Source of the DNA: Leptogorgia sarmentosa
Taxonomy: Eukaryota
Assembly (NCBI GenBank): GCA_964658305.1
Contig: OZ210885.1
Span: 11,470,001 to 11,534,000 of the forward strand
Reading direction: 5' to 3'
Length of the DNA stretch: 64,000 nt
Part shown: piece after piece, positions 23,620 through 63,267 of the stretch
Numbering within the stretch: position 1 is the stretch's first letter
Layout: each line of letters begins with the position of its first letter
Program-made: the position numbers and the translations under genes
Notes under the pieces: generated by a model
What the model was told of the DNA's origin: nothing
The model's database searches: none
What the model saw: only the letters and a program-made list of their open reading frames with translations

Positions 23620-24487
23620 ATGGGTTCGCCTTTAAGTCCAACTTTAGCTAACATCATCATGATGGCATTAGAAGACGAAATACTAAAAGACCTTTTCGAA
23701 AACGATACTATAAAATTCTATATAAGATATGTTGATGACACACAGGTTTTGGCCAAACCGTCTGATATTAACTTGATTTTAAATAAACTGAACAGCTACC
23801 ATCCGGATATATAGTTCACGCATGAAGAGTTCGTCGATAACGAGGTAAATTTTTTGGATATCGAATTAACATCTAACGGCACTTCGATTTTTCGTAAGAG
23901 CACACACACAGGCCAGTATATCCATTAATCTAGTTTTACTCCGTGGTCGTACAAAATTGCATGGATTAGGTCACTTGTGCATAGTACTTGCACTGTTTCG
24001 TGCAAAGATAAAACACCTAAGGAGTTTCAAAGTTCGGTGGTTTATAAATTTTCATGTCCTGGGTGCGGCAAAACATACATAGGAAAGACAGACAGATGCC
24101 TCTATACAAGACTGAACGAACATGCAATCACAGACAAAAACTCAGAGATTGATAAAAACATTAACACTTGCGAACAATTTAACTATCTGAACCTACTGAA
24201 CAACTGCAACATCATAGGCAGGGCTAAGCATTGGTCAAATCGCTTGTTCAAAGAAAAAAATCATTCATCGACAAAAACCGGAACTGAATCATGGGACTAA
24301 AGCATCTAGAGAACTATCGGTTTTCTTCTGATTAGATATCAAATTACGTAGAATATATATAACGCGTGCACATGAAATATAACCATTCCTGAATGCTGAT
24401 GATGACTAAATAAAGTCGAAACGTTGAATCAAAATGCTTACGTTATTCGGAGTTACCGTTGTTGTGTATTTCATGAAAATACTCAGA
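23620..24487 (+). mobile_element. Truncated, internally deleted Penelope-like retroelement (RT plus GIY-YIG)
   Basis: MGSPLSPTLANIIM and YIRYVDD (RT); VVYKFSCPGCGKTYIGKTDRCLYTRLNEH (GIY-YIG); stops and frameshifts present. Confidence 0.88.
24396..24425 (+). ncRNA. Minimal hammerhead-ribozyme-like core at the Penelope 3' end
   Basis: CTGATGA-T-GACT-aaataa-AGTC-GAAAC, matching the CUGANGA / stem II / GAAA pattern. Confidence 0.6.
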
Positions 24488-26963: not shown

Positions 26964-27549
26964 ATGATATCAGAGGAAGAACAACATTGGGTTTTGGTTG
27001 GCATTGCCTTTACCAAAGTTCTTGCACCTGCATTGAGGAAAGTTGTCGCCACTGAACTTGGGAAGTGGTATAATTCTTTATGCCAACCACCTGATGAAAT
27101 TCACAAGCAAGATTTCGCAGCATACAGAAGGAAGAAATTACCCCCTTCCACCCATAACCTACAATATCAAAACATTAACAACAACATTATCCACAAGCCT
27201 ACTAAATCAGCTTATGATTATGCTGTTAAAGATCCTGTCTCGTTGGCGAAACTATTCGTCACGGACTTTATGGCACATTTCACTGGATTTGATGAAACCA
27301 TGGATATGTCAGCACTTTTGACTATTATCGGCAAGGCAGACCCTTTTGTATCTTCTGGTGCTGCAGCTGAAGCAAACAAAGTTCGGTCGGACATCAGAAA
27401 CCCATGGGCTCATTGTAACATCTCTGAATGGACAGTGCATATGTTCAATGACTCGTTTCAAGCAATGGAATCTTTGGTGAAAATATTAAATTTACCAGCA
27501 GCTGACGAAAAAATAATTTGTGATGACCTAGATTTCTGGAATAAAACAG
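26964..27549 (+). CDS. Exon 1: N-terminal helical domain with HEPN-like RxxxxH motif (DZIP3-like HEPN / CXorf38-like)
   Basis: ORF MISEEEQHWVLVGIAFTKVLAPALRKVV...DMSALLTII...KVRSDIRNPWAH. Acceptor AG at 26955-26956, donor GT at 27550. Confidence 0.8.
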
Positions 27550-30500
27550 GTACACTGTATTATTCCACAGATCATTTTTTATCTCCAGTACGAAAACCCC
27601 CATGTGTTGAAAGAATTTCTCTTATTATTTATTTATTATTATTATTATCCAATTTTATTCATATATTACCATATATACAATTCAATGCGATTCTTAATAC
27701 GATCAATCGTTGAAATTATATGGGGTCGAACAGGTAAAAAAAATTAAATTCTTCAATAGTGTAACTATACTTTGAAACTTTACATAGAAATCTAGTGTTG
27801 AATTGGTGACAGTGATTTATTTTTAGACCTTCATATAAGTGCAGAAGTTAAATGCCTTTAATACTGTATACAACATGATATACAGTATAGTACAACTAAA
27901 TATATGCTGACATATGCATAAGATCAAAATTTTCACATGAATTAGACTTCGTAAATCGTACTAATTCCAGTTCGACATTTGTGTTCAAAACTTCAATCAT
28001 CCAAAAGTGGAATAAAAGGGAATGTTTAACGCAATTTTGCCAATTTTTTCATTTTAGTATTAGGCACGCAAAATTGATAGACTTTTCTCGATAAGGATAT
28101 AAATGCATGGGTAATACAAAATATACAAAATTTGAAAACTTTACAGGGTCATATTTTTCGCATTTTAAAACAATTCTCAACCAAACTTTACAGTTTTACT
28201 AAATTTGGGATGCTCTTTAACGATGTAGCTCTGAATTGTACCATTTCGAAATTTTTAAAAATTGTCTATTATGCAAAAAATCTACTTTACTCAAAACGTC
28301 CGACCTGTTTGCATTTTTAGGTAGTGGGTAGGACATGTGCTGCTTGCTGATGTTGTTATCCTCTATCTACTACACTGGCCGCATATTGAAGTTTGCTAAT
28401 AACGACAGCAGACCATGCTTATCAAATAGTTTGTATGGACAGCAAGGCATGCTTTTTCATGTATCCTTCGTGCTACGCGCATTAGCAGCGATATATTTAT
28501 AGTGTTTGTGATACTCAAGATAAATTTTCTTCATTATTTCCAGACATTCTTGTTGATGGTCGTCACGCAAAACTAATTGCAGAAAGTGTAGCTGAACTTT
28601 GCCGTTGTATCAAAAACTACGATTTGGACGCCACAAAGGTTTGAGGAACTTTTGATGTTTCATTTAACAGTCGTTGAATAAGTAGGAAGACGCTGTTCAA
28701 ATTAATATAAAACATGTTTCAAATGCGAGCCAATGCAAATTTTCAGCGTGGGAACGCAATCTGTGCTTTTTTTCGATAATGCTGTTTTTATGAGTTTTGT
28801 TTTATCCGTTAAGTCAAACATGTGCATACTTTTTTGGGGACACGTTTGCAATAGAATACTTAGAACGAAGCGTGTACCGATGAATAAAACACACTACATA
28901 TCAATTACTGATAAATAAAATACTCTTTTAGGGGGAAAAAAACTAGCCCAAGGGGCTGGGACATCCCATTAAGCAAAACAATTGAGCCATTCTCATAGGC
29001 AAGAGATAAACCTAAATTTGATAGATAACAATTATTTTTCCTTGCAAAATTGCTATTGAGGTTCCAACGTTGAACTACAAATTTCTGAAAAGTTTACAAA
29101 CTAGGAAACTTGCATATCAGATTTCAATAGACCTTATGTATAATGTCGTCACAAAAACTTTAGCTCGTATTCGACTTTACATCTGTGTCGACCAAGCATT
29201 GAAATATTTCGTCCTCACAGTGAGGTAAAAATTATTCGATGGCCAATTTATAAGAGAGGAAAAAATAGGTACGCATGTGGGTAGCCCGTAAAAGATCGGC
29301 GAAGCAATTTTCCCTTTCCCTAAAATCCCAACCATTAAAGTCAGGAAAATATTGATCAAGCTCAGACGGTTAAGAACACGGGCGTGCGTCGCTGTTCAAA
29401 CAAAACAAGTCCACAGAGTTTCCGTCTTCTCTCTTTAGCTAGCCACAATGCGTAGTTTCTGTCCCTAGGATTCTTGACTTGCTCGGTAATTGCCTTGAAG
29501 TTCTTCAGTAATTCTATTTAATTTGGGAATTAACTCTATAAGCGACTGGCTTCGGTTTCTCGCCTTTGCTGGGCGAGAGTTATAACTCCATCGTTTATCG
29601 ACTGGGAGTTTTATTTTCAGTTTGCCAAAGCACTCCAAGTATAGAACGACTGTCTTTAAACTTCAGGACATCAGACCGCAGTTGGTTCTTTTCAGTTTTG
29701 GAGCTTAGTTCACCCCGCGCTAGTTACTCTTCGTCACCTTTTTTTCATTCAAGAACTAACAATTTTACTTTACTCATCTCGCCTAAGATTCATTGTTTTC
29801 AGTCACCTCGATACACGCTTTCAATTCCAACTAATTCTTCTCGAATCCTTGTGTGGCCCTGCCCTCTTTACTTGTCAGGTCGTCCTCGGCTCATATATAT
29901 TGTCTCATCTTAATCTCTAATCTAATATATATGAAAAAATTTCTCGATTCTGATTGGCTGAAAGCAGTGCAATTTTAAGGAAATACAGTGCCAAAAAAGG
30001 AAATTCATGTTAATGTCCTATGATTGGCTGAGATTACAAAGCTATCCAATCAGATTAAGTCATTTCTGGCGAACAATAACAAAATATGAAATTATTCGAG
30101 GATGAAAAAATGGCTGCCTTTTTGGGTAGATTTTTTTGGCAACAGACAAATGATAGAGGGGCTTAAAAATAGTTCGAAAAATGAAAATACCAGGAAAGAT
30201 ATCTAGTCTTGTGGTTGATTGTGCGGAGAAAATGGTGCATTGAAAAGGAAATACAGCGCGAGATACAAAATATTCCGCAAGAGGTGTTAGATTATATATT
30301 TTGCTCGATTGTTTTTATGCTGAACGAAAACTGTGAATTAAAAAAGAAACGACATGAATATGAACCAGACAGCTTAAAAGTGATATTAACAGCAGTCGAT
30401 GATGACAACTTTTTTATAATAAGAGACAAAGATTTCCCTTCGTTCAAGCAAGTGCTCGGTGGACAAGCAAAACATCTCCGCATATTAGCGGCCGAACAAA

Positions 30501-33500
30501 GCGAGACAAGTAAAATCTACTTAAATTCTCATGCTATTTGGAAAAACATACACTCGTGAGTTTGTCAAAGACTTCAAATTACACTCGTCCTTTGGACTCG
30601 TGCAATTTGAATGTCTTTGAAAAACTCACTCGTGCATGTTTTTTTCCAAATTGCACTCGAAACCATACAATTACTCATACTAATAACGTCAGATTATAAC
30701 TATTATTACATCACACACCTTAAACCGCTTTGTGAAGTTGAGAGTGATTTCAGATTTGTTTTAGCCCGTAAATTGAATATTACTAAATCAATTTTATCTA
30801 TTCAGATAAATCCAGTGATGGAGAAACTCGATAACATACAATCCACACTGCTTCGCAAAATTAAAGAGGTTGAAAGGTCTGCAGCTGAGAAACTTGAACA
30901 TCATTCAATGGAGCTTAAACGTCTGGCGGAGAAAACAGATGAAATCGAATGTCGTCAGAAAAAGCCGAGGACGGAGCATTCAGATTTTGCAGAGAAAAAA
31001 GGTAGTGTTTCAATTAACTAGGAAAGATGGGAATCTATTTATGCAGATTATATTATGCAGGAAAATTTACAGAGTATCAGGCAGCCATTCAATTTTCAAA
31101 ATTTGTCCCCCCAGGAACCTTCCCGGTCTTCAACGTTCTGTTTCTAAAGATTTCTTGTAGAAAAATATCTCGTTAGAGTAAACGGCAACAGGAATCCAAT
31201 ATGTCTTCTAAGACTTCCCAGATTTAGTGGGAATCCGAAAGCATTGGCAGTGCAGTACGCGCTGTCGCACTCATCATCACTAAAAATGAATTTTAATGTT
31301 GGGCGGGTTAACTGCGTAGGTCACAACCAAATAAAAAACGCTCGTGAAAAGTTGACGCAGCTCAATTGCGACAAGAATGCTTAAATGTTGCTGATAGTTG
31401 TTAAAAGCTTCTTCTTTTGATTTGTGTCCTAAAATGCTTCATTAATAGGAGATTCAGTTTAGCCAATGTTGAAAGTCAAGTTGTCAAGTTGCGAACTGTG
31501 GTAGAAAATGTAAAATCTTCTGAAAATTAGCAAAATTTGTCTTTAATGGAAAGATTGACCAGCTTATTCGAAAATTTCGAGAAGGGACCACACAATGGTT
31601 CTTTGACGACTTTGAAAAATGGCTTCGCGATACGAAATCGAGAGTTATGATCCTAAATAGAGGTCCCGGCGTTAGGAAAAGTGTTCTGTCGGCAAAATTA
31701 TGTGACTTGTATGAAGAGACTGGCCAGCTTGCTGGTTGCCACTTCTGTTACTTTAGAGGCTCTGATTGCCGAGATGTCACTGTTCGTTTGTACTACTTTC
31801 TAAAAATCCATGCTGTAAATGATGTTTATAGCTTTATTCTATAGCATGATTTGAAAGCTTCAACTGAAATGGACGCTGCGCGATATATACAATGAAACGT
31901 CGGCTGTCCAGAAGCCGAATCATACCCTAGAATGTCTAATTCTTATTTGTATAGGTACATATTGGCATGGTTTCGAATGCAATTTCGATATAGTATGCAC
32001 GAGTGACCTCGATGATTAGGAATGGTAGTTTGATATTACATATCTTTATATCACCACTGCACTCAGTGGACAGCACTTCAAAATCATACCGTACTCCAAG
32101 TTCTCTCACCCTGCAGTACAGGTGGTGAGGAAAGACTGTACCAATTAGTACCTTCTGCGCGCGCACGCATAAACGACCAAACAGGAACAGCCACAACGTA
32201 GAAACTTCTCATCAATAATTGTAAACCACACTACAAATTGCTTTTCTTGGTAAAGTTTAAATAAAGTTTAGACTCACTTCAGTAACAATACACTGCAAAC
32301 TGTAGCAAGAGATTTTCATGCCAGGGCGACGTAAAATATTGAACGAAATTAATGTTCAAAGTTGAAATTATACAAATATGCATTCTGGTATGCACAATTA
32401 TTTGAAGCGTGCAGCAAAGCGATTTCAAAATTATCATCTATATTTTTTAATCGATATTCTAGTTCCGTATGGATTACGCAATCTACCTGCTCACATGGTG
32501 GAAAGGCCATCAGAAGTAACCGAGATATTGGAGTTACTCAAGCAGGGAAATAAAGTGGGTGTTGTTGGACGTCATGGTGGGGACGTTGGTATCCGTGGAA
32601 TGGGAGGCCTCGGTAAGACGGTGTTAGCCCAAGCTGTTGCCTGGGAAGTCTCAAAATCTCGTCAAGTTGTCTGGCTTGACATTGGTCAAACACCTGATCG
32701 CTTGAAACTGATTAACACCCTCGTCAGAGTCCTTGGTGGAGATGTGTCGTTCAGTGATATTGTTGCAGCGCAATCTTGGTTAAGAAAATACACGGTATGT
32801 ATGCTGTGCTATATTTGATGTTTGTGAGAAAATGTGATAGGGCTATTTTCAAGATAGGGACGATTTTTAATGGGATGTAGCTCGGATAGCCAAGTTGCAC
32901 GAATACAGAAAAATATATCCGGTACAGCGTTGGTAAACGTAAATTAAAGCGACGTTAAATGTAGAAGTATGATGTTAGATGGACGTTAAAGATAGAATAG
33001 TGGCAATTCTTCCAAGTCTTTTCTTTCGCACGACCACTTACCCAGGGCGGTAAGCTTTATTACTTGTCTTTAATTTTTAAAATAAATTTAGCATTTTAAC
33101 CCGGCTTCGCCTTGTTCAGTATTGAAAATTTCTCGTGCGTTGTACAGCCAGTTCGTGTAAGTATTTGTAAATAAAGCACAATTCTTAACTCGTGCATTCT
33201 TGTTAAACGAAAACAATATATATTTGCATACGACTGATGTGTCGAAATATTTCCTTCATGCAGTGATGATATTTCCCTTGGGCTGAAGCCATCAGGTCTT
33301 CATGAAATATTTCGACGATTATATGTAGCCCCCGGGTCTATAAATGATAATTAAAATAGTACCTCTACTTTCTCAGTTCGTTAAAAAACCTCATTCATCT
33401 CATGCATTGGTGGTGAGATGATGGCAGCTGGGACTCTTTTACACTTGCAATTTTTGCAGCGATTTCTAGTGCGAGTTTTATTATTGAGGTGAAAGACTAA

Positions 33501-36500
33501 ACCAGTTGCGGAATTCAGAAATAATAAAATCAGAACATTCGTCATAAATCCACCTATGCATGAACATGTGCCTCGTATATCAGAAAGGCCAGAAAATGCC
33601 ACTAAAAAATTGCAAGCGAGCCTTTGAAGGCCTTGGCTAGTAAGAGTGGTAAATTTTACCAACCTTTGAATGCAGTTAACAGATACGGTTTCTGAGCTAG
33701 TTTTCAACTCATTTTTAGATTGATAAAGATTGTTTGGTTGTTGTTGATGATGTTTGGAAGGTGGACGACGCTGCTGTATTCAATTGCTTATCTGGCAAAT
33801 GCCAATTATTAATAACAACTAGAGATGCTACTGTTCTCTGCGGCTCGGGAATTACCAAGTACGAACTTGTTATTATGCCACAAGATAAATCCCGAGGGCT
33901 CTTGTATCGGAGCGCCGGGATAAGTCCAGACGAACAGTTAACGCCAAACTTACGGCGAATTATTGCAGACCTGTTAGAGCAGTGTCGAGGTTTACCGCTG
34001 GCTGTGTCACTGGTGGGTTCAAATTTAACGGACACTCGTGCGGAACAAGATTGGGAGGATGTTTTAGATGATCTTAAAAATGCTGACCTGGAGAGAATTC
34101 GTATATTATTTCCCAAAGTCGATTATCCTTATGATAACCTCTTAGCAGTCATTGATGTGAGCTATCAACGCCTAGACGAAAGTGTACGCGAGATGTTTCT
34201 ATATTTGGCTATATTTCCAGAGGATACAGATATACCGTCAGATGTACTCGAGCTGCTGTGGTGTTCGATACAGAACCAGAATGGAAAAACTTCGCGCAAA
34301 CCTCAGAAACACAAAGATATACTTGCTGTGCTCGAGAGAAAGTCGCTGATCTTAAAAGGTATATATATATTTATTACATAGACAAGCACTATATATGAGA
34401 TATTCTGTAATCTGATTGGCTGAGCTACTCACTAGCTATTACTTCATATATAGTGAGTAGGACGAATTTAATGATCTCACTCAAGTGAGCTTAAAACAAA
34501 ATGGCTGAAAATGGCTGAGCGTTTCCTTCAAATGAATGATTTTAATAAAATTTATAATGTTCGCCTTTTGTCTATATAATAAAACAATTATACCATTCGC
34601 TCTCGTCGTATATGGCTGATAGCCAACTCATCGGCTATCAGCTCATATACGACTCGAGCTCATGGTATAATTGTTAAATATAGTTTTATATTTTAACAGT
34701 TTTGCATGAAAAATTGTTAAAATTCAGTTTTGCACCGAAAAATTTTTATATTTAGTGCGAAGTTCACTTTGAAGTATTGTCATTAGTCACGAACATTTAC
34801 AACATTCAGTGAACCAGTAATACAGGTTACAAAGTGGATCGAGATTTCATCCTGGATTGACGGGAAAACTAAACCGAACAACGTTTGCGTGTCTTAACCG
34901 CGTGCAGAAATTTATTTTGGGATCACTTTCTTTGGGATACTTAGTAACCGCGCGTACTTTATAAATTTTATTGTATTGCAAAATCTATTCATATAAAATA
35001 GTTGGCTCAGAGGTTGTGGTCCCGGCTCGCCAGTAGCGAACCTGCAAATTCGAATCTCGCGTGTTGGCTTTTTGTCATTTTGTTTGTTTTTTTCAAGCTC
35101 TTTTTCTCAGCATTTTGTTATTAGGGTCAGAATTACTGTTTGGGCCAGGATTAGAAAAACAAAAATAAGAAAAGACAATATTTTCTGTTTAGAGTCAGAA
35201 TTGCCATATAATATTCTCGACCCAGTACCTCCCGAGCAAAGTGATCCCAAAAAAAATTTCTGCTAACCGCGTATTTTCATTGCTCCAAGTCGATTTTGCA
35301 TGTGAAGCAAAGCGAATGTGAGTATACTTGCATCCAACTATAGACATCTAGTACAACCGTCAAGAATTCTTTTGAATGATATGAATGCTCTCATTAAGAC
35401 TTCATTAACAGAAATATAAGGAGAAGGCGTAAGATAGAATGTTATCTAAGGCGAATAATTCGTTAATAACTCTGAATGGTTTTCTTGTATCATCCATGCA
35501 AAGAGTATGTTTTGCATGTGTCTTTTAAACAATTTGACTCCATTGCCTGCTTATCCAACATTTTTCAAATCATTGCCACCTCGTTTCCATGGCCCAGAAG
35601 TTAAAACTTGCGATGACTTGCATCTCGTTTGATCATGGCTTAATATTAATCAAAGCCAGTTCATGTTGTTAGTAAATGTATTAACTAGTTCTGAACATAA
35701 CGTATTGGAGAATCCCGTTATTGGAGTTTGTGGGTTAGCCCTACCATCTATTTTCATCTAGTGTCTATTGTAATTTCTTTATTGATGTTTTGTAATAATA
35801 AGGCGAATCATGTGAATTAAAAAACATTCTTTGCTTTTTAGGAATTAGAATCAGGACTACCTTAAGTCTATGTGCCTTTTTACAGATATTGCATTATTCT
35901 TGGCTCAGTATAGCCAGTAATTATTCTTATTGTGACTAAGCCATTTCGTATTTACGAAAACCTGATAGCACAATTTCTTCCATAGCTACTCAACGGCGAT
36001 TTGAAAAATTGTCCGTCTCTAGTACAAATTTCCTAACATTTCGATCAATTTCAGGGCCTGAACTCCACGGAAAGAGAAGCTATCGTGTACACGACTTGCT
36101 TTTGGATTTTGCCCAGACAAAACTTCAAGACATGGGTACACTAAATGATGTTCAGGATAAGTTCGTAAAGACACTTCGTGGCCTGTGCGTGGATGGTGAA
36201 TGGAATGATAATTCAACTACCTGCCAAAGAGACTATTATTTCAAGTACCTACCCTATCACATTTATTCTTCGGGACGACATGGTGAACTACTTCAGCTGC
36301 TGTTTGATCTACACTGGCTCAAACAAAAAGTGAAGCACGTCAACGTATTCTCTGTAATATCAGATTTTCGTTTTGTGGACACAGAATCGAAGGAAATCCA
36401 ACTTCTCAAATCCTCGTTAATGTACTCTGCCGAAGTCATCAATGAAAAGCCAGATTCAATCTGTCCTCAACTCCTAGGTAATTCAAATAATGAACTTTAA

Positions 36501-51500: not shown

Positions 51501-54500
51501 TTTCCTGCTTTCAGATGGCAAGTAGATGGTGGGGGCTTAATAAATTTTCACCCAAATTTGGTATCGTAAATATACTAATTCACACAACACATCCAGAATA
51601 TCAATTAACTTCATTACGCATTAAAATTAAAGGAACGAAAGTTTTTTTTCATAAATGTTTTGCTTGATTCTCAGCCGAATTGAACCAAAATGTAATCATC
51701 TCTTCCTTGTGTAATGGCAAACAATTGTGCAAGATGTTCGATATTTCACAAACAAACCAGGATGATTACATAACCTCCTCGCGGTCGTAATGAGCTTTAA
51801 CATTATGCTTATGCAAAACTAACTGGAAGAATAATGTTACTTTGCACAATTCATTCGTGATCATGACTATTGTACTTGCCAGACGGTTCGCCCATATTTT
51901 GAGTATTTCAAATTTATCCTGACACATTGGAATTTCTTTTTGCGTCAATTTCTCTTCAATATCCTAACGGTACCAACAAAATAAACTTTCGGTATTCTAC
52001 TACTGTAGAATCCATTGCCTGGACATGCAGAATGCATATATAAAAATTTCTCCTGTCAGCGATCGAGTTATTGAATATATTTAGGATATCATGTACTTTG
52101 CTTTCCCTTGTTTTTTTGTGCCAGTTCGACTAAAATGCGAAGTTTCTCTTTTAGATTCAGGAAAAAACAATCCAATGCTCGTGTCTGGTTCAGACGATGG
52201 GACAATAAAAATTTGGGATTTAAAAACGTATCAGGAAATTCGTACCCTTGACGTTCGATCTCGTGTTACCAGTGTCGCTGTGAGCGATGATAAAAAGAAT
52301 ATTATCTCTGGAGACGATGAAGGAAGTGCGAGGTTGTGGTGTTTCCACACTGGAAAGTCCCTTTCCTGTTATGAAGGTCACACCGATCGCATCAGGTGGG
52401 TTCACTCTAGCAGCTATATCTAATTTAGCGAAAGGATCGTTATGCGGGCAAGGCAACAACGAAGACCCGATACATAACATTAAGCTTAACATACAACACA
52501 TTCTGTTTTGTGTAATTGTATTAATTTATTACGATATTTAACAGTCACACTTAGACGTACTGCTTCTTGAAATCGGTTATTGATGAATTGAAAAGATAGC
52601 GAAGATGAACGCCATCAAAGTAATTTTCAGTCATCCATTTGTTCGCAACGCTACAAGAATTTCTATTTATTACACTAATATACTAATTGGCTTGTGGCTA
52701 TAGTCGTGCTTATTTGCAATGGACGACTTGGGCTTTAGAAAGATTTTAATGAGGGATAAACGTAGGAAATTAAGCGCATGACATCCAATGCAACATAATT
52801 TTACCTGTTGTACATCTTTCATTACCCTATCTTGTATTGTTGCTTTCGTTGATTTTTTGCAGTACTGAACTCTACAATATGTCTATAGGGCTCCCGTTGA
52901 TAACAGTTATTTTTATTACTGACGGGACTACCCAATGTGAATAAAAGTTTTATCTATCTATCTATCTTCTTAATTGTTGACATAGTAATAGAAAGATTTT
53001 TGCAAAAATTAAAGTCACCATAGGTGTAGTTTTCATTTGCACTAAAATTTGATGAATACGACATATTTCCCAGATCATGTATGAATAAATTATACAGCAT
53101 ATTTTGATAACATTGGTCTGACAGAGATCGTCTTTGCCTTTTTTCGGTAGAAAAAATTATTATTTGAAATAAACAATCAACTTCTAATATTTCAGCGGTG
53201 TCGCAATAATTCCCAATGCAAAGAAGGCATTGACAGCGTCATGGGATGGAAGTATCAGGGTTTGGAACCTGGGAACTGCTGCGTACATGGAACAATACAG
53301 TCTCTCTGATCATTCAAATGACGTCACAGTTATTACAATCGCTCGTGATGAGTCTAGATGCGTTACCGCTTCAAATGATGGTACTTTCAAAGTTTGGAAT
53401 CTTCACACAGATGCACAGTGCTTTTCTGTCAAAGGTATAGTTCAAATTGTCTATTTGGGTCAGCTTTCTTATAAATAGGTTGCGGACGATCTCGTTTTCA
53501 TTTCATTTCACTGACTAAATTCATTTTTATTTTACTAAATTGATATTGTCTGCAACGCTCTGCACTGATATTAACCGATGGTTAAGTAGAGTTGAATGGA
53601 TAGCAGGATTTCGTAAATTAATAAAGTTAATTGCCGTTAATTTGTATTTCCTAAGATAATTGCATGTAAAGAAAAGAATTACTTTGATATTCTTATAACC
53701 AATCATAATTACAAAATTTCAACTAGTTTCATGCAGAATGACGAAATAAAACTTGAAAACAAAGCAATAAGTGGTGAGAAATTTTATATTTTGGTATTTC
53801 GCTCGTGTTGTGTTTGTCATTGTCATCTGTGTGTATCAAATATTCCGTATCTCTACACTATTCCTTGTATTCAATAAACAAATTACTTCATGCGCAGTTG
53901 GCTCGTTTATTCGAATTTTATTATTTACAAATCGTACACATCTCTATTTACATCATTGACGAAAGGGAAATGTTTTATGAGATTTGGCGATTGTCTACTT
54001 ATACACTTTGCTTTAGAAAATTCGTACAGTTCCTCTCGTTTACAGAAAGACAATACATAGAGATTGATGGCTACTTCACGGTTGACGAGTGCATACGATT
54101 TGTATTTACCAATTGTGAAGGATCGTTAAAATAAAGGAGATCGCTGGATGGTATACTCCAAAATAAGATATCCGCGACTGCTGTACATTCACGTCAGCGG
54201 TGATAGAAATTTCTATTGGCGTACTCATAAAATAAACCAGTCCCAAACCATAAATCTGACCCTAACCTTTGGTTATGGTTTGGTACTCGTGGTTAGGGTC
54301 AGATTTATGGTTTGGGACTGGTTTATTTTGTGAATACGCCAATAGAAATTTCTATCACCGCTGACGTGAAGGTACAGCAGTCGCGGATATCTTATTTTGG
54401 AGTATACCATCTAGCGATCTCCTCAAAATAAACGAGTGACCCCGTGAGAAATCGAGTGACCCCGTGTGAGCTTTGCGATCACAAGGAGTAAATAATAATA

Positions 54501-57500
54501 ACGGTACAATGGAGCAACTGTGAAGTTGTTTGTTTATTACAGGAGTATAAAGAAGAGTGTAGAGATACGGAATATTTGATACTGAAAGACAACAATGACA
54601 AACACAACGCAAGCAAAATATCAAGATATAAAATTCCTCACCACTTATTGCAACAATGAGGTTTTGCCTTGAACAGCGGATAGATGCACACTCATTTCTC
54701 TTCTGGTTTGAAATATGTCTATACGAAGTCTTGGAAGGGATTTAATGTGAAGTTACGTGGTTCCACATAAAGCGTATCACGGTTGTTGTGCAGTTCCAGC
54801 GTGCGTTTTCCAGTCCATTCTTTTGATAGTTTATGGTCTAGCCCACTAAAATAAGGTTCAATATACGACCCGTGAAGGTTCGGCCGGATATAATCAACAT
54901 CAACAAGCAACAAAAGTTCTACTTACTACCTAAACGTTAGAAAACAAATTCACTGCCTATCGTTCAGTTGGTGAATAGAAATTTTGCTGCTTGTTAAAGT
55001 ATCCAGCCATATTAGATACAGTATTTAATCCACTCCTCAAGATTTTTCTTTTCATTGCATATAAATCCTTAAATTGCAAAGATTTTTACATTAATTTTAA
55101 TAACGCGTCCAAGTTGATCATGCACATCTCATTTCTGACTGTTTCAGAAAATATCCTTTTAATGTTTACTTAAATTTCTGAATTGATTATTTTTCCTTCC
55201 TGATCAATAGGTGACCTTGAATGGGCAGAACATGTTGCAGTCTCTGCTGATGGTCGCTATGTCGTGTCGTTGTCAAAGGAAGTTCTACGAACGAGCCCAA
55301 CGGAGTCCTCGATAAAGGTATGGTACACAAGGCTACTAGCTATACTGTACATATAGAAATACAAGCATCCGAACACAAGAAATTTTTTGAATTGTTTGTT
55401 CCACGTTTCGACTCGGCGTATTCATTATTAGGAATGTATACAATTTTTACAAAACATGGGTATATATACTTCTGAAACTCATTAATAATTCCTGAAGAAA
55501 ACACAGAGGAAATCGTCAGCGTGCAGGTGTCAGTATATGTTATACGCAGATTTCGGTTGATTGGCATAAACTATATTTTTGATTTACTGATGTTATATCA
55601 AATTTGTTTTTAAATTTAAAGAAGATTTGAATCAGACCTTAGATAATCGAAGGCATGCACTGGAAACTCTGCCTCAAACTGTACGACATCCGCGTTATGC
55701 GCTTTGTTTTGAAACCTGTAAGTTCACATTCAATCCATTCCAGGACTTCGTACTGACATATTTTAAACCAGAACAGAAATGAGTGTGCAACTATCGACTT
55801 TAATGATTTATATCTGTTACAATCACCACAAAAGGCTCATGTTATAAGGCTGATGATACAATATAACGAAAACTCCAGTAGACCCCTGAACTCAAATAAA
55901 CTAACCAAACTTTCTCCAGTAACTTTATTCACGGGGTTATATAAATGCAGTTAAATGCGTACATAAACAGTGAAGACATAAATTAAACAAAATCGTTAGA
56001 AAGATTATATTGTTGGGGAAGTGTTAGAGTGACGGAAATTGTATTTCTTATTTAAAACCAAATCATAACCCTATAATTTCTAACGTCGTGCATGCTACTG
56101 TGTCTTAGATGGCAGACCCGGCGAAAGATGAGGGCTCTGGAGCCTGTGGTTCCCCCGCTCACTTTTTTGCTGGGAAATGAAGTCGTGAATTACTTGTCTT
56201 TCTTAACAAAGGAAAATATCTCTTCTCCTCATACAGTTATGAATTCACATTAGGTTTTTTCCACAAGATCATGCATGATTGTACCGATCGTTAAAACAAA
56301 TTCCCGCCTGAAAACGCCGGGAAACGTGTTTCTGTGCCAGCCTCGTCCCCGGGGTTTTAAAACAAATGCGCGGTCACGTGACACGCGCGTGGAAACACGT
56401 CTGAGTAGCCCACGACGCGAGGAGGAAGCGCCGAGCAGAAAATGAATCGAAAAGTTAGATTTTTGTCGAAAAGTGAGATATTTTGAATTTGCTGGTTTTT
56501 GTTTTAAAATTTCGCGCTTGTTGGTCTGTTTTTCCGAAGAACCATGGATTAGATAGATGAATCACTTCAATATATGACTTTTGAAGGTAAATTTATTCAA
56601 AAATGTTCTCATTTGAATGTTTGATTATGCATGTATTAAATATAAATAGTGTATACGCTGTATATTTTGCATATTTGTAATAAGCAGACCAAACGGTTGA
56701 TCCATTGCCAAAATCGCTGAGCGCACATTTTCACCATCATTATCCAAACAAGAGTGTATTAAATCACGGTGATCCGCCGTGCATTTGCTCGCGTCCACCA
56801 TCTTGTTTGCATTTTCTGCCAGGCCCTTCTCGTGCAATTTTCCCCTTCGCTCCTCCACGCACGTGTCACGCGACCGCGCAATTGTTTTAAAGCGCCGGGG
56901 ACGAGGCTGTTTCTATGCGCCGTAATTAATTTTAAAATGTCCCGTTGAAGCAAGTTCCCCGCCCCTAACGCATACACACGCTGAAAATTTTGTTTTGTAT
57001 TGCCTGGATTGCCGTTTTTCTGGCCTGAGACAGGAAATTTATGATATGCGCAATACATCAGCAGACACCGTCATCACTATAGCTAGTAAAATGCATGTCA
57101 CACGCTGGAACGGTCGAACCGACTTGTCATCATAGCTTTGTTTGTGTTGTTGGTTGGTTGATTGGTAAAGGACTAGGTAAATTCTCACACAATTTCGGTT
57201 TCACATTGTGTTCAAGCAATTTTTCAGCACTCGTTTAGGGGATATATTCAGAGCGCAACTAATTTAATCTAATATAGTTAATTTGTTGAGTTCAGGACCA
57301 CAACTTACAACTTACTGAATTTGTTTCAAAGTTTGTTATCTCCTTCGCAACTACTTTTATTTTCTAATTCGCATGACTCATTTAATTCCATATCGAACCG
57401 CTTATAAACTGAAACTGGAACTAAAACTAACCTCCTAAACACCCATACGTCAGGAGGCGCTGAATACCATCCTTCAGGGTGACAGAAAAGAAATCACAAG

Positions 57501-60500
57501 GCGTCCTTCTTGGTGTGACCTCATTTGTCATTCACGAGCAAAGGAAAAAGACACCATTCTTGGAGGAAATTTATTCAGACAATGTTTATTTATTCCAAGT
57601 TATAACCTAAAGTTGTAGGAACGTCAAAAACACCACAATGGATTTTAGATAGTCACTCCAATATGGGCGCCATTGGTTCATTTATACATTACCGAAGCGT
57701 TGTCCAGTCATATTATAAGACTGTTCTTAATACGTACATCTCGGAAATTGAAACGTAAAAACTAATCTAGAACGTATTAACTAACTAGTATGCTCTATCA
57801 AAATCTTTAAAATCTGCATAACGTCCGGTTTTTTGTCGCTTTGAGGTGCACGCATAATATAACTAAGTAGACCTATTTATAAAGTCATTCATGTGCGTGT
57901 TAGTTTTTTATTGATAATTAGTTTTGAAGAAATCATTGTAGTCACAAGTTTTAAGCGCGTGTTGCGTATCACACAGAACAACTTTTCCTTTTATTTTTCA
58001 AGGTGTGGAATTTGTCTGATGGCAGTGTGATCAATGGAATTGATAGCGATGGCACACCTGAGATTGTTCGCTTTAGTTCTGATGGGTTGCAAGTTATAAT
58101 TGGATGCGAAGATAACCATGTGTTCATCTGGGACTGGCAAAAGCCTGATGCGTCTTTGAAAGAAGTCATTTCACCCGCGTCCTATACAGTGGAAATAGCA
58201 TGCGATCACAACATGATTTACACATGCAGCCCTGACATGCATATTTGTGAAATCAATCTCGACTCACTACAAGTATCGACTGTTCGTCAAGGGTCGAGCG
58301 TCCCACCAGTAATATTACCCGACAGTAAAAGAGTATTATTTGGATCGCTTCAGAATAATGTCTTTTTCAACCGGAAACTGTCAACTGATAGTTGGATCAA
58401 CCATAATGCAGGTGGGTAAATGAAGGATTATTTGAAACTTCTAAATACTTTTAAGTCATTGATGCGACTACAGGGTATTGTACTATCTTTATACACACAA
58501 AATTTATGTTTGTGAAATATACGTTTTAATTCAGAAAATATTTCTCCCCAAAAAAGGGTGCATTCAAATTGATTTTGGATTCGATTTAACAAATCGTCAT
58601 GGCTTCACATGCTATTTTCTGATTACAACAATACAATTTAAACGGTTTCATCGCGAGTATCTAGCTACAAGCCGATATGCATTATTTAGGTATGTTGCAT
58701 GTAGCTAGAGAAAGAATACCAAACCTACAAGATTGCTGTGATATATAGAAATTCTATAGGATTTGCAGCACATCGATGCCGATGAATGTAAATCTCAATG
58801 CTTATTTAGCTTGTAGTGTCACCCACGCAATCAAAGCCAGCGCAAAATATGCGTTTGCGAACGCAAACATAATTCGTCATTGGAACAATATTCATCGTCA
58901 TAATGCTGTTAGGAAATGAACTCGCCCATATTTTTTCCGTTACGCCCGCAAATGACATTAACTTCAAATTTCCGTTTAACACCTAGCCTAATAGTGCTAA
59001 CGCGCCCCAATTATCTGGACACTAATCCTAATTGCCTCTCCGCCTCGCCTTTACAAGCTAACGTATAAAATAACGCGCAAATTGTTAGAGTCAGTTGTCA
59101 GACAGTCATAGCTTCGCGCTTGGTGAGTTATTATCAACTGTATTCTTTTGTGATGCCGCTTTAATATATGTGAATAAATACTATATGTGTACAAAATCTT
59201 GTTAGTGTTGAGTATTTCATATGCAACTTCGCACAATACAACTCGAGCGAATCTCACATACTCAAATACTAAAAGCTCATCAAGAATTTTTTCCGTCATC
59301 CTTTTCAATTTATTTGCTACTATTCATTTCGCATTATATATGTTATAATTATATATTTTGACCTTATCAATATTAATTCAGTTATCTCTGTGATTGGAAG
59401 TGGTATGAAGGATCCCGACTACGAGCCCTAATTCTGTAGCTCCATGTGCTAATTCACACGCAGTCATTTTTGACGGCGTCACTCCTATGTGGTAAACCTA
59501 AAAGTTGCAACACTGGTAAATTTAAGTCGTCGATAGCTTGTCGAAAACACGTAAAAGAGGGTTGAGAACGAAATAGAGGACTGCAATGTTATATGGTTAG
59601 CATGAGTTCTTCACCATTATTCATCCCCACAATATAATATCCGTTTCAATTCAGAATATATTAGTATTTCAAAACCCCTCTCTCGTGAGTAGCTATAACA
59701 CACACCTCCAGGAGAAACTCACGACATGCGGCAAAAGCGGTGACAGGCAATTTGTAAATGAGTTCGTGCAAAGAATCGAACCGATCTTAGAGGTAAAAGG
59801 TGCTTACTCCAGTCCGCATGTGAATTTAGTCTGTCTCATGTCTAGCCCAAATTTCTTCGTTATACAGAGCTTTATCGGCAAACCAATAAGACTATCCCCT
59901 TGCGTAGCAATATTATGCTTAGCAAGTTAAGTAAATAATTCCCAACGTCGCTCTAAATTAATTCCAGTCAATGACTCATTTGCTATGAATTTGAAGTACG
60001 TGCCGATAAATTGTCTAGAAGACGAAATTTCGGCAAATATCACATCTGTAGGTACTTATAAGGTGCTCACTTCTTCAATTTGAAAGCCCATTATTTCGGT
60101 CAACCATATTGCTCTACATCGTACGTATTGGCTATATGCACGCGGCATCTTTAGATCACCTTCACTCCTCGCCTTTTAATAGTTCATTTATACGCGAGAA
60201 CAGGCCATGCATTCCCACGATGCATTGTGCGCACAATGTTCTGAGTTTGGAAAGGACAACCTTTTTTGAATTAGTTGTACAGTACGTCACTCATAGTTGC
60301 CTCCAATATTATATTTCCTGGGTCATTCTGCTGTTAAAATGCGGGATCCAGATACAAATAAATTATATATTCGACTGTCAGTGATGAGTTTGACCGTCTA
60401 CAATTTCCATTATCGCGCAACTTAATTCCTAAAACTGCATTGTTCGTAAAACTGCATGATGACGATCTGCTACTGAAAGCAATGCGATCTTGGAAAAAAA

Positions 60501-63267
60501 AGAAAAAACGTAATTGTATGTAATTTGTCCCATTTGTTAATGATCTGGGTGTAACAGTGTGTATCTGTCTGAACCTGCTCGTCATGCAATAATTCACGAC
60601 AAAACCAAGTATATAAAGATTTTATATAAAGATAAGGTGGACTATTAGGACAGATTTCATATAAATTGGCTCCAAACCTGTGTTAAGAAGTATTTCTTAT
60701 TCCATGACTTTATTTTCATTGAATATAAACTTCTCAAACAAGTTTATGAATGCAAAACAATCCGGTTAACAATTGACGTGCACTTGTCTAAAATAATACT
60801 GAAATTATTTGCCAAAAGGTAACAGCGTGAATCACTGCTGGCTAACCGTTTCTTTACCACAATATACTTATTTTGATATATAGCGCTATTGTAAAGCCGG
60901 TTTTCCACTAGCGATTTTTGTCGCGTGAAGCGAATATTTTCCATTGTCCTTGATCTTTCGACTGGAACCATCTGGAACTAATTCATGGCTAGAAATATGC
61001 GACATGTAGTATTACGCAATGGGCATTGGGACTTTCAAAATGCTCGTAAATTTATAGTATGCAGCAACGCAAAATAGTATGTTTTCTTACATGCGAAGTA
61101 TAAACATGGTAAATCGACTTGTAGCGAATCGAAAAAGCAAAATATTGTGATATTTAGAAGCCGATAAACCTTGTCCCCGAGCGATTCAAACGTATCCATA
61201 GATTGTAGCGTATTATAGCCGCCATTAATCATCAATTCTTATATACTTCACTGAAAGAGAGCGGTGTTTTAGGATACATGAAATACAAATTCCAACATGC
61301 GAAGCTTGATTTGTCAAGATGGGGTTTCGGCGGCTTCAACTAATATAAAACCTATAATAGGTTACGTATCTTTCCCTTGTCCAGCTTTACGTTTATGTTC
61401 GATAGTTATGGATATTTCAAGCAAAGCGAAGCACTTTGCCGAACATAAACGTAAAGCTGGACAAGGGAAAGATACGTAACCTTTTATAGGTTTTATACTA
61501 GTTGAAGCCGCCGAAACCCCATCTTCACAAATCAAGCTTCGCATGTTGGAATTTGTATTTCATGTATCCTAAAACACCGCTCTCTTTCAGTGAAGTATGT
61601 AAGAATTGATGATTAATGGCGGCTAATACGCTACAATCCATGGATACGTTTGAATCGCTCGGGGACAAGGTTTATCGGCTTCTAAATATCACAATATTTT
61701 GCTTTTTCGATTCGCTACAAGTCGATTTACCATGTTTATACTTCGCATGTAAGAAAACATACTATTTTGCGTTGCTGCATACTATAAATTTACGAGCATT
61801 TTGAAAGTCCGAATGCCCATTGCGTAATACTGCATGTCGCATATTTCTAGCCATGTGCGTCAAGACAAAAGAAAAAAATCGATTCGCGCGACAAAAGTCG
61901 CTAGTGGAAAACCGGCTTTAGTCCGCACCATAGTCAGAATTCGCGACATTTGAGCCCGCGCTATCTGCCCAGCGGCTGTACGAACAATGTCCTCAGAATT
62001 CATCAATACCCTCCGATATCCCTCACCGTTTTCTCATCAAAATCAAAATGCCAAAAACAGCTGGTACTGAGAAACATAGTCCAACTGTCGAAACCATCTA
62101 AATCATCCGACTTTTTTCAATACGCATCTCTCCTCGTAAGGGGTCTCAGCCATTCTGAATTTAAATTTTCACGCGTTGCTTTTTGGAAAAGCGTGTTTGC
62201 TGATGAATAGAGTCTCGGACTTACGACATATCTTTAGGAAAAGGCTACACATCGAGAAAAATTCTCTCTCGCTCCACATTTTGGTACCAAACAGTTTTAC
62301 TCTTTGGACATATTGGTGAACGATAAACCTCAGTGGACTTTATTGATTTTGTAACTTGAAAAAGCAGAGTGGCTATAGATCGCCAAAACATCCAAGATGA
62401 TGAAACGAATTCAAAAGCCACTCGTTCAAGCTAAAAGATTTCAACAATGATTGATTGCTGTCTATAAGTATCATGAAATTTGAATTACAAGCTTATCTTT
62501 CCGAAAAATATGTTGTTCCCCCATCAAAATTATCAGTTAATTTCTTTGAGTATTACTCGCAAAAAGCTACGCCCGGTGTGAGAATTTATGGTAATTTGTG
62601 TTATTCATGCACTGACTTGGACAAATTCAAATGACTTTAAATAAACGTTTTACTTCTTTCAGGTCATCCTGACGACTCGATAGTTACAGCAATTGACATC
62701 ACATCAAATGGGAAATTTGCTTTGTCTGGAAGCAGTTCAGGAACATTGTCACTGGTCGACATAGAGTGTTCTAAAATAGTTCAAACCTTTGCAAAGACCG
62801 AATCTGGAGACGCCATACGTTTTGTGTGCTTATTAAGTGATGATGTCCGTTTCGTTTTTGTTGACGAGGCAAACAGGATCGAACTAAGAACTTTTAGTGA
62901 TACCGAGGCCAGCATTAATTTGGGTGAACCAGAAGTTAAAGTAACTTGCATTACTGCTCTTGGTTCAAACTATGCATTGCTTGGTTGTGATGATGGAGAA
63001 CTGTTATGGTTCCAATTTAACAATAAATCGCAGTTGAAATTCCCAGCACACGAGGATGCCATTTCTCAAGTTAGAGGCGAGCTAGCAAGTCATGATCTTT
63101 CACGTCGCTTTGCATCGGGGTCTATCGGTGGGTCTGTGAAGCTTTGGAATGTTGAAGAAAACTTGCCGACGTTAATATGGTCACATGACAACATTTGGCC
63201 GGATCCCATTACCGCGTTTGAATTCGTGCCCCTCTCGGATGATATCATAATTGCTTCGGGCAGTAAG
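26964..63267 (+). CDS. Multi-exon Apaf-1-like STAND gene: HEPN-like domain, coiled coil, NB-ARC, WHD/HD2, WD40 repeats; 3' end lies outside the window
   Basis: 14 GT-AG exons join in one open frame: 26964-27549, 28544-28638, 30806-31001, 32463-32794, 33719-34358, 36055-36477, 42090-42335, 45912-46130, 49122-49331, 52155-52395, 53196-53434, 55211-55317, 58003-58411, 62663-63267 (4548 nt). Intron phases match at every junction. Motifs seen: GMGGLGKT, VVVDDVW, LLITTRD, GLPLAV, VHDLL and many WD40 repeats. Confidence 0.88.
28544..28638 (+). CDS. Exon 2 (linker), not in the ORF track
   Basis: tttccag acceptor, AAG/gtttga donor; open frame DILVDGRHAKLIAESVAELCRCIKNYDLDATK; phase 1 to 0 bridges exons 1 and 3. 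Confidence 0.65.
29925..30683 (+). mobile_element. Degenerate Crypton-like element
   Basis: Peptide EYEPDSLKVILTAVD...IIRDKDF...QVLGGQAKHLR resembles the region upstream of the DUF3504/Crypton recombinase domain. It has a CTGATTGG box near the start and a terminal hairpin at about 30538-30650. Confidence 0.65.
30806..31001 (+). CDS. Exon 3: predicted coiled-coil linker
   Basis: INPVMEKLDNIQSTLLRKIKEVERSAAEKLEHHSMELKRLAEKTDEIE; ttcag acceptor, G/gtagt donor; phase 0 to 1. Confidence 0.75.
31524..31775 (+). pseudogene. Truncated, degenerate NACHT-type (NPHP3-N/NWD-like) ATPase exon in intron 3
   Basis: Reads KLAKFVFNGKIDQLIRKFREGTTQWFFDDFEKWLRDTKSRVMILNRGPGVRKSVLSAKLCDLYEETGQLAGCHFC. This resembles the GTRxW...WL...GxxGxGKS...HFC start of NACHT domains. 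Walker A has G>R and no Walker B follows. Confidence 0.78.
32463..32794 (+). CDS. Exon 4: NB-ARC start with Walker A
   Basis: LPAHMVERPSEV...VGIRGMGGLGKTVLAQAV...VVWLDIG. Confidence 0.92.
33719..34358 (+). CDS. Exon 5: NB-ARC Walker B, sensor 1, GxP motif and start of winged helix
   Basis: CLVVVDDVW, LLITTRD, CRGLPLAVSLVG, SYQRL...LAIFPED...LLW. Confidence 0.93.
34904..35263. mobile_element. MITE with 9-bp TSD (MULE-like)
   Basis: TIR GCAGAAATTT..TTTGGGATCACTTT; TAACCGCGT duplicated at 34895 and 35264. Confidence 0.8.
36055..36477 (+). CDS. Exon 6: MHD-like motif and Apaf-1-type helical domain
   Basis: YRVHDLLLDF, YYFKYLPYH and LLFDLHWLKQKV resemble Apaf-1 WHD/HD2 segments. Confidence 0.9.
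38050..41250 (+). mobile_element. Decayed Helitron-type element (OTU-like domain plus Rep) in intron 6
   Basis: Frameshifted remnants: IVGDANYFFRSVS, TWADNIIIQAVAN, GHLDELHYVS (OTU); CTCCDQ, LTPLEERLISPRI, VEFRQRGSPHIHGLFWIKNAP (HUH motif at 40860), CRFNFPLPP. No helicase is visible. Confidence 0.85.
38835..39210 (+). repeat. 114-bp (2 x 57) tandem repeat inside the Helitron, formerly coding
   Basis: AATCCTGAAAA recurs at 38892, 39006 and 39120; NPEKV-type 19-aa subunits. Confidence 0.85.
42090..42335 (+). CDS. Exon 7: end of helical domain and first WD40-like blade
   Basis: The splice creates QLLGRLL; ...LVLCGLENGSITIFDLDTG. Confidence 0.85.
42462..43200. mobile_element. MITE with 9-bp TSD and TAG ends (AcademH-like)
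   Basis: TIR TAGCCTCCTCCGCAGGCATCTCT; GATTCAAAG duplicated on both flanks. Confidence 0.82.
43783..44662. mobile_element. MITE containing a nested younger MITE
   Basis: Ends TAGGGACCTTAAGATC / GATCTTAGGATCCCTA. Confidence 0.6.
43907..44421. mobile_element. Nested MITE with about 85-bp TIRs and 7-bp TSD
   Basis: CCGTTGAACAAAGACCTCAACGGGTAGTACCC... is inverted at 44335-44421; GCTACAC duplicated. Confidence 0.82.
45912..46130 (+). CDS. Exon 8: WD40
   Basis: LQGHSKKVTCLAVSQSGTILASGSWDGSTILW. Confidence 0.9.
46278..46607 (+). mobile_element. Solo left end of the same CACTA-like family
   Basis: Near-identical to 20043-20373. Confidence 0.88.
47611..48627. mobile_element. hAT-like non-autonomous element
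   Basis: TIR CAGTGGCGACGCCAGC; 8-bp TSD CTTACTGG. Confidence 0.87.
49122..49331 (+). CDS. Exon 9: WD40
   Basis: DGQFIATVGYGDMTIKLW...LVGHTDWMTCV. Confidence 0.88.
49802..50647. mobile_element. Fold-back MITE with TTAA TSD (Kolobok-like)
   Basis: About 405-bp near-perfect arms starting AGAGAGGTTACAGTCCC, about 30-bp spacer, TTAA on both sides. Confidence 0.85.
52155..52395 (+). CDS. Exon 10: WD40
   Basis: LVSGSDDGTIKIWDL...IISGDDEGSARLW...EGHTDRI. An alternative in-phase acceptor would start the exon at 52161. Confidence 0.9.
53196..53434 (+). CDS. Exon 11: WD40
   Basis: ALTASWDGSIRVWNL...CVTASNDGTFKVWNL. Confidence 0.9.
54136..54422. mobile_element. Palindromic MITE with about 10-bp TSD (MULE-like), nested in an older inverted repeat at about 53763-54651
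   Basis: GGAGATCGCT...AGCGATCTCC palindrome; flanks TTAAAATAAA and TCAAAATAAA. Confidence 0.8.
55211..55317 (+). CDS. Exon 12: WD40 segment, not in the ORF track
   Basis: GDLEWAEHVAVSADGRYVVSLSK...SSIK joins VWNL of the next exon; phase 1 to 0 is required to keep the frame. Confidence 0.82.
56338..56909. mobile_element. MITE with 9-bp TSD (AcademH-like)
   Basis: TIR CAGCCTCGTCCCCGG..TTTAAAACAA; flanks TTTCTGTGC and TTTCTATGC. Confidence 0.8.
58003..58411 (+). CDS. Exon 13: WD40
   Basis: VWNLSDG...VRFSSDGLQVIIGCEDNHVFIWDW. Confidence 0.9.
60894..61918. mobile_element. Fold-back MITE (Harbinger-like ends) with an internal palindrome of about 420-bp arms
   Basis: TIR AAGCCGGTTTTCCACTAGCGA flanked by TA; the internal palindrome 60984-61855 produces mirror ORFs in the track. 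Confidence 0.82.
62663..63267 (+). CDS. Exon 14: WD40; gene continues past the window
   Basis: GHPDDSIVTAIDITSNGKFALSGS...AHEDAISQV...FASGSIGGSVKLWNV; AAG/gtatgt donor. Confidence 0.9.

Follow-up and report, generated by a model that had tools for sequence, protein, structure and literature searches.

The window, the 64,000-nucleotide stretch of Leptogorgia sarmentosa DNA analysed here (AT-rich, GC 36.5%), carries on its forward strand 14 GT-AG exons that join into a single open frame of 1516 amino acids (26964..63267, over 36 kb). Exons were placed using open reading frames and tblastn, and their ends were then adjusted to canonical AG/GT sites; eight stop-free 14-exon paths resulted, with differences of 3-4 nt confined to three junctions, and the first of them gives the 1516 amino acids. 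The coding part of exon 1 (26964..27549, residues 1-195), preceded by a splice acceptor at 26958, encodes a predicted HEPN-family domain with the Rx4H motif R145-N-P-W-A-H150 at 27396..27413, where a sequence-only reading had placed it, at the end of a predicted helix (133-150). Exon 2 (28544..28638, residues 196-227; 89% DNA identity to the related contig L002 over 76 nt) encodes a helical linker, and exon 3 (30806..31001, residues 228-292), ending in a phase-1 intron, a likely coiled-coil spacer. The NB-ARC domain starts in exon 4 (32463..32794; Walker A GMGGLGKT at 32597-32620) and continues in exon 5 (33719..34358) with Walker B (D413/D414), TTR438, a GLPL motif and the start of the winged helix. 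A VHD motif at 36087-36095 (H629) and the APAF1_C helical domain lie in exon 6 (36055..36477), the end of the helical domain and the first WD40 blade in exon 7 (42090..42335; alternative donor 42339). WD40 sequence makes up exons 8 (45912..46130), 9 (49122..49331), 10 (52155..52395), 11 (53196..53434), 13 (58003..58411) and 14 (62663..63267, with a GT donor at its end), and exon 12 (55211..55317) adds a propeller segment. Pfam recognised NB-ARC in exons 4-5, APAF1_C in exon 6 (E 4e-11) and WD40 in exons 8-11, 13 and 14; NACHT plus leucine-rich repeats, the domains that would make the protein an NLR, were not among the Pfam matches of the coding exons, which yield NB-ARC and WD40.

Human and mouse Apaf-1 came first in PDB for both exon 5 (best match E 6e-17) and exon 6 (six of six matches), and exon 4 alone did not retrieve Apaf-1. 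D413/D414 are equivalent to Apaf-1 D243/D244, R438 to R265 and H629 to H438, residues that we take to have roles in the nucleotide switch. The Pfam domains, PDB matches and switch motifs uphold the earlier description of an intact Apaf-1-type NB-ARC, helical domain and WD40 array. Compared with human and mouse Apaf-1, the window protein keeps the equivalents of Walker B, R265 and H438 but has no CARD and a longer WD40 region. The N-terminal CARD of Apaf-1 proper is absent from the model and from its relatives P0001 and P0126, and the protein is therefore Apaf-1-like in the sense of PMC10959488. Since corals also keep a CARD-bearing Apaf-1, the window gene is likely a paralogue of it.

One gene, its ends and its surroundings

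The reading had proposed a single phase-consistent 14-exon gene without a CARD, and this is borne out by the stop-free model and by two colinear relatives that lack introns. P0126 (1709 aa, contig L008) aligns to window residues 2-1516 with 57% identity and P0001 (1205 aa, contig L002) to residues 2-1143, through exon 11, with 59%. Because both contigs match the window exons in order and without introns (blastn), they appear to resemble spliced transcripts. In L008 all 13 junctions are read through with a register offset of at most two residues, and L002, which extends over 11 junctions, keeps register at 9 of them, junction 2 falling in an alignment gap and being unscored and the protein ending three residues after junction 11. 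The join of exon 3 to exon 4 is in exact register in both relatives, and the junctions 27549/28544, 28638/30806 and 31001/32463 of the window gene have canonical sites and keep phase; its own splicing would follow the pattern of these relatives.

The splice acceptor at exon 1 had been taken to leave room for a coding exon further upstream. The acceptor stands, but relatives argue against a coding role for whatever precedes it. P0001 and P0126 start at most 11 residues from the exon-1 domain, and in each a stop codon lies in frame a short way ahead of the ATG, so that both lack a CARD upstream; P0071 (81% identical) has its first residues in common with the window, MISEEEQ, and in many close relatives a start codon lies no more than about ten residues from the domain, with open reading frames running into intron 1. 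Given these stops and start codons, a CARD exon upstream is unlikely, and an exon upstream of exon 1 would most likely be non-coding; blastn of five related contigs gave no match 5′ of exon 1 in the window. At the other end, P0126 extends about 197 aa past exon 14 with a tail that has no match in the 64-kb window. With a GT donor closing exon 14 and the tail absent, the gene likely continues for about 190 aa beyond the window and is incomplete in it.

The gene is real and conserved, under purifying selection, with dN/dS against P0001 and P0126 of 0.18-0.71 over all four regions (HEPN 0.18-0.32; NB-ARC 0.29-0.30). Three further contigs, L001, L003 and L009, match the window's intron positions and have frames that stop just past the equivalents of exon 1, exon 2 or exon 3; they could be unspliced reads, HEPN-only isoforms or truncated paralogues.

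Intron 3 holds a decayed NACHT-type gene fragment (31463..31841, forward strand; NPHP3_N, E 2.3e-9) that is frame-broken, has a degenerate Walker A, lies outside the reading frame and is preceded by a phase-compatible acceptor. It had no match among the 241 proteins and 29 loci compared; it is probably a piece of a gene that was inserted there, and may record shuffling among STAND genes. Mobile-element relics comprise a decayed Helitron-like Rep in intron 6 (39859-41195; Helitron_like_N, E 6e-4), near-perfect long inverted repeats (90-97%), foldback or MITE-like, in introns 9, 11 and 13 (49795-50654, 54135-54423 and 60892-61920) and, upstream of the gene, a KDZ transposase fragment (7965-8228, reverse strand, E 1e-9); a weak GIY-YIG fragment (23929-24297, forward strand) also lies upstream.

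The exon-1 domain and the spacer

Relatives of the exon-1 domain were compared as 122 distinct sequences among the matches listed (one search listed the best 120 of 215), from sources that include octocorals, Acropora and bivalves. For the gene as a whole, the closest named relatives among the matches listed are from Dendronephthya and Xenia and point to an octocoral gene. Conservation of the arginine and histidine, proposed earlier as a check, was found: RNxW[AG]H is intact in 118 of the 122 relatives listed (R in 119, N in 121, H in 120; four lack R or H), a count to be read with the bias towards motif-bearing matches of searches that shared short words with the query. In a set of 16 distant relatives, retention is 88% for R145 and 94% for H150. 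Since 36 of the 195 positions are conserved at ≥95%, the motif does not stand out by conservation alone; the acidic residues D110 (122 of 122) and D114 (99%), at or just before helix 115-124, are conserved too.

Pfam gave no match at E≤1 for exon 1 of the window. Across 90 relatives at the same threshold, HEPN_Swt1 was matched by 70 (best 1e-4) and DUF4559, which we take to be the CXorf38 family, by 23 (best 2e-5), while every other family stayed at 5 of the 90 or fewer; all such HEPN_Swt1 and DUF4559 matches inspected fell under the Pfam gathering thresholds. HEPN_DZIP3 (PF18738) did not match exon 1 and was absent from the 25 of 36 families listed for the 90 relatives. The annotations of ESM-Atlas neighbours were HEPN_DZIP3, DUF4559 and HEPN_Swt1, and the top clusters are eukaryotic, with HEPN_DZIP3 or DUF4559 on 11-38% of members; their high scores (0.93-0.98) are weak evidence because recognition was 2034, below the 2300 mark. 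NCBIfam and PADLOC returned no consistent family for the domain.

An AF2 model from a 120-row alignment (pLDDT 94; a single-sequence run, pLDDT 42, was set aside) places the motif where helix 133-150 ends, ahead of helix 158-174, and has a further helix, 179-194, beyond the HEPN core. The placement agrees with the description of HEPN helices 3 and 4 in PMC3710099, in which the motif ends helix 3 of the helical bundle, before helix 4, with a long insert. A PDB fold search retrieved the Swt1 C-terminal domain 4pqz (Z 7.0, rmsd 3.4, 119 of 136 aligned), HEPN 2hsb (Z 7.0, rmsd 3.3, 98 aligned), the HEPN toxin 7ae2 (Z 7.0, rmsd 3.6, 99 aligned) and sacsin HEPN (Z 6.9), rows that tie with generic helical bundles, acyl-CoA dehydrogenases being at the top (Z 8.2). 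Foldseek with the domain model gave nothing at E≤0.001. In the structural check suggested earlier, the motif placement spoke for a HEPN, and the fold search fitted one without being decisive. The sole match from a profile search of PDB sequences, a capsid protein, was rejected as due to chance. The predicted homodimer score, 0.01, was counted neither for nor against, and the domain is not basic (20 K+R against 24 D+E).

Exon 1 thus very likely encodes a Swt1/CXorf38/DZIP3-type HEPN that is missed by Pfam cut-offs. We hold the HEPN fold itself with high confidence, and the earlier claim of an N-terminal HEPN is probably right given the weak Pfam matches, the ESM-Atlas neighbours and the conserved RNxWAH; RNase activity of the predicted domain, argued by analogy, we consider probable. 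In Mytilus, the Roc-COR protein P0032 apparently has two copies of the same HEPN, and both P0032 and P0059 have a changed motif.

The spacer encoded by exon 3 has a heptad a/d hydrophobicity of 0.47 against 0.22 overall. In P0001 the segment between HEPN and NB-ARC (residues 258-320) is expanded by repeated 7-residue units, and spacer length varies in whole heptads.

Likely origin of the predicted HEPN

With the NB-ARC region of P0001 as query, the best 120 of 625 matches were listed, and the nearest chassis relatives among them carry one or two DEDs (P0123, P0124, P0125, P0127 and Nematostella P0130) or, in Xenia P0128 and by similarity in P0129, tandem death domains; the same HEPN is present on one of the 119 other chassis proteins listed, P0126. 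These CARD-less Apaf-1-like proteins with DEDs or death domains (Nematostella P0130, Dendronephthya P0124/P0125, Xenia P0128/P0129) are 42-63% identical to the window protein from NB-ARC to HD2, whereas the window has the HEPN and coiled coil instead of death-fold adaptors, and its predicted output would therefore be enzymatic rather than caspase recruitment. Proteins with different effectors become similar exactly at the exon-4 VPYGL boundary, and the phase-1 intron there would fit exon shuffling.

In an NB-ARC tree of 27 rows (the window and 26 of the 120 matches listed), midpoint-rooted between cnidarian-type rows and 13 distant, apparently bacterial rows, the window groups with P0001 and P0126 in a single clade (100/99) that sits inside rows bearing DEDs or death domains. 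A tree with nine non-HEPN relatives held together and HEPN outside was rejected by an AU test (p-AU 5e-5, for a post-hoc group) that used 15 of the 120 matches listed; P0149, labelled DED in the 27-row tree yet without a Pfam match, was dropped. Because the HEPN clade is nested among relatives bearing DEDs or death domains, HEPN is the derived state on this chassis and likely replaced DEDs rather than a CARD. The earlier phrase of a HEPN in place of a CARD is right about the effector position, and is not supported as to the predecessor, the nearest relatives having DEDs or death domains.

In Dendronephthya, Acropora and bivalves the same HEPN forms the N-terminus of NB-ARC/AAA_16-TPR-beta-helix-MYND proteins, and it also occurs on a Roc-COR protein. 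We strongly infer that an older HEPN-STAND-TPR family of cnidarians and bivalves was the source of the HEPN and coiled coil (exons 1-3). By chassis, P0126 and the window are sisters; by HEPN they separate, and a tree that keeps their two HEPN domains together was rejected in a post-hoc AU test on 20 chosen rows (p-AU 4e-5). The partial HEPN rows P0014, P0030 and P0031 were omitted in the tree analyses. Between P0126 and the window, dS is 1.73 in the HEPN, near saturation, against 0.62-0.72 in the rest of the gene, and in P0126 (residues 8-200) the HEPN exon has likely been exchanged a second time among paralogues.

Proposed mechanism, rival readings and published relatives

We lean slightly towards a ligand-gated, self-assembling RNase, a one-protein immune switch that would cut RNA. 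The ADP-bound monomer would be closed; a ligand, for which a pathogen protein, cytochrome c or nucleic acid are candidates, would bind the WD40 propellers; nucleotide exchange would drive ring assembly, in which the coiled-coil spacers would pair HEPN domains into a composite Rx4H site; and RNA would be degraded, leading to translation stop or cell death without caspase recruitment. Every dynamic step is by analogy only with Apaf-1 and dimeric HEPN RNases. The human Apaf-1 ring is heptameric, and an odd-numbered ring is an awkward fit with a two-fold HEPN active site. CARD-less Apaf-1-like proteins may not oligomerise (PMC10959488), which also counts against a ring, and DNA is named as a candidate ligand because Apaf-1-like proteins are reported to bind dsDNA (PMC11747288). 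The fuller account, of an apoptosome rewired to a caspase-independent RNase by a mobile HEPN cassette, triggered by ring assembly and with HEPN exons still exchanged among paralogues, is tentative and falls a little short of probable.

The HEPN fold might instead be an RNA-binding or protein-docking module, an adaptor or integrated decoy without nuclease activity from which a partner protein takes the signal. Eukaryotic Swt1 HEPNs are probably inactive binders (PMC3710099), the previously listed Apaf-1-family N-termini are all interaction modules (PMC2246300), the domain is not basic, and two bivalve relatives, one of them the Roc-COR protein, have a changed motif. Inactive HEPNs, however, lose the motif, and R, N and H occur together in nearly all of the relatives listed, with the CXorf38 group listed as active in PMC3710099; we consider this reading unlikely. 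Somewhat less likely again is an active RNase that exists as a standing coiled-coil dimer, with the STAND switch, a partner NLR or proteolysis doing no more than lifting its autoinhibition. The nucleotide-switch motifs, which in Apaf-1 are tied to oligomerisation, are intact in the window protein and under purifying selection, and so speak against it. For it speak the heptad-patterned spacer of variable length, the HEPN-only or HEPN-plus-linker products encoded by L001, L003 and L009, and the resemblance of helix 179-194 to the occluding helices modelled for CXorf38 (bioRxiv 10.64898/2026.05.28.728550).

Two other readings are very improbable. A decaying or near-neutral product of exon shuffling without current function would suit introns full of mobile-element relics and the relaxed constraint proposed for CARD-less Apaf-1-like genes (PMC10959488), but is already largely refuted by a 1516-codon frame kept open over 36 kb, the low dN/dS of HEPN and NB-ARC and an architecture common to three proteins at 57-59% identity. 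The gene model could be wrong, with exons 1-3 taken from another gene (spliced, for example, to the intron-3 NACHT remnant) or a CARD or DED exon upstream, and here the same-strand NACHT fragment with its phase-compatible AG, the exon-1 acceptor and the reliance on relatives for the window gene's splicing are set against the register of exons 3 and 4 in two intron-less relatives, the in-frame stops before their ATGs and the broken frame of the NACHT remnant itself.

The concept of a sensor coupled to an RNase is already published. Fusions of CXorf38 and DZIP3 HEPNs to NACHT and death domains in cnidarians were described in 2013, with an RNase L-like defence proposed (PMC3710099), and among the immune-receptor architectures of corals and bivalves such HEPN-STAND fusions rank with the commonest: counts there run from tens to hundreds (PMC8260672, PMC10236652, PMC9646362), including 17-83 HEPN-NACHT proteins per anthozoan with 83 in Dendronephthya (PMC8260672), HEPN-NB-ARC-TPR and HEPN-NACHT-WD40 proteins listed for corals (PMC10236652) and a bivalve HEPN-STAND case (PMC9646362). 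HEPN occurs with WD40 or STAND in oyster TRADD-N proteins (PMC8195603), and CXorf38 has been modelled as an autoinhibited HEPN (bioRxiv 10.64898/2026.05.28.728550). The cnidarian and bivalve DZIP3-like/CXorf38 HEPN-STAND proteins, which include HEPN-NACHT-LRR as well as HEPN-NACHT-WD40 and HEPN-NB-ARC-TPR forms, share with the window protein an N-terminal Rx4H HEPN, a central STAND ATPase, a C-terminal repeat sensor and the same proposed sensor-to-RNase logic, likewise predicted only; the window chassis differs in being an Apaf-1-family NB-ARC with APAF1_C and WD40.

Homologues of Apaf-1 with CARD pairs, DD, DED or TIR are known (PMC2246300, PMC10959488). In Additional file 16 of PMC10236652, none of the seven APAF-1-domain rows has a HEPN, their N-termini being CARD/DEATH or DUF4062; in Additional file 17, where the comparison covered 30 of 323 HEPN places, there may be a HEPN/NB-ARC/WD40 row. 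The open-access literature, mostly as titles and abstract openings, yielded neither a paper that describes an Apaf-1-type chassis with a HEPN nor an assay of an animal HEPN-STAND protein, and the Apaf-1-type chassis and the DED-to-HEPN swap appear to be new. Because this HEPN subfamily lies below Pfam cut-offs, domain surveys would score the N-terminus as empty, and such receptors are probably undercounted. The effector list of the Apaf-1 family (CARD, DD, DED, TIR) is widened to a predicted nuclease. No STAND scaffold is better understood than this one, and individual residues that would fix the switch in its on or off state have Apaf-1 equivalents, which makes the 2013 hypothesis directly testable; the proposal, if true, would offer a manageable first case for asking whether the hundreds of invertebrate HEPN-STAND proteins act as RNases.

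RNase L and Ire1, with KEN-type HEPNs, work similarly in that a sensor is predicted to join HEPN domains for RNA cutting, but they use a kinase scaffold and another HEPN family (PMC3710099, Table 1) where the window has a STAND ATPase. Bacterial Avs/STAND and cyanobacterial Apaf-1-like proteins (PMC13581612) are alike in having an enzyme directly in the effector slot, and the window gene, if the reading as a ligand-gated RNase is true, would be a eukaryotic counterpart, on an Apaf-1 scaffold, of bacterial Avs enzyme-effector sensors. The bacterial Apaf-1-like proteins have caspase-like proteases as effectors (PMC13581612), whereas the window holds an animal multi-exon gene of a cnidarian clade with a HEPN. 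Bacterial NB-ARC-WD40 proteins are the next-closest chassis matches among those listed, at about 30-34%. One of them, P0137, has an N-terminal SIR2-like domain and is another case of an enzyme effector on an Apaf-1-like chassis.
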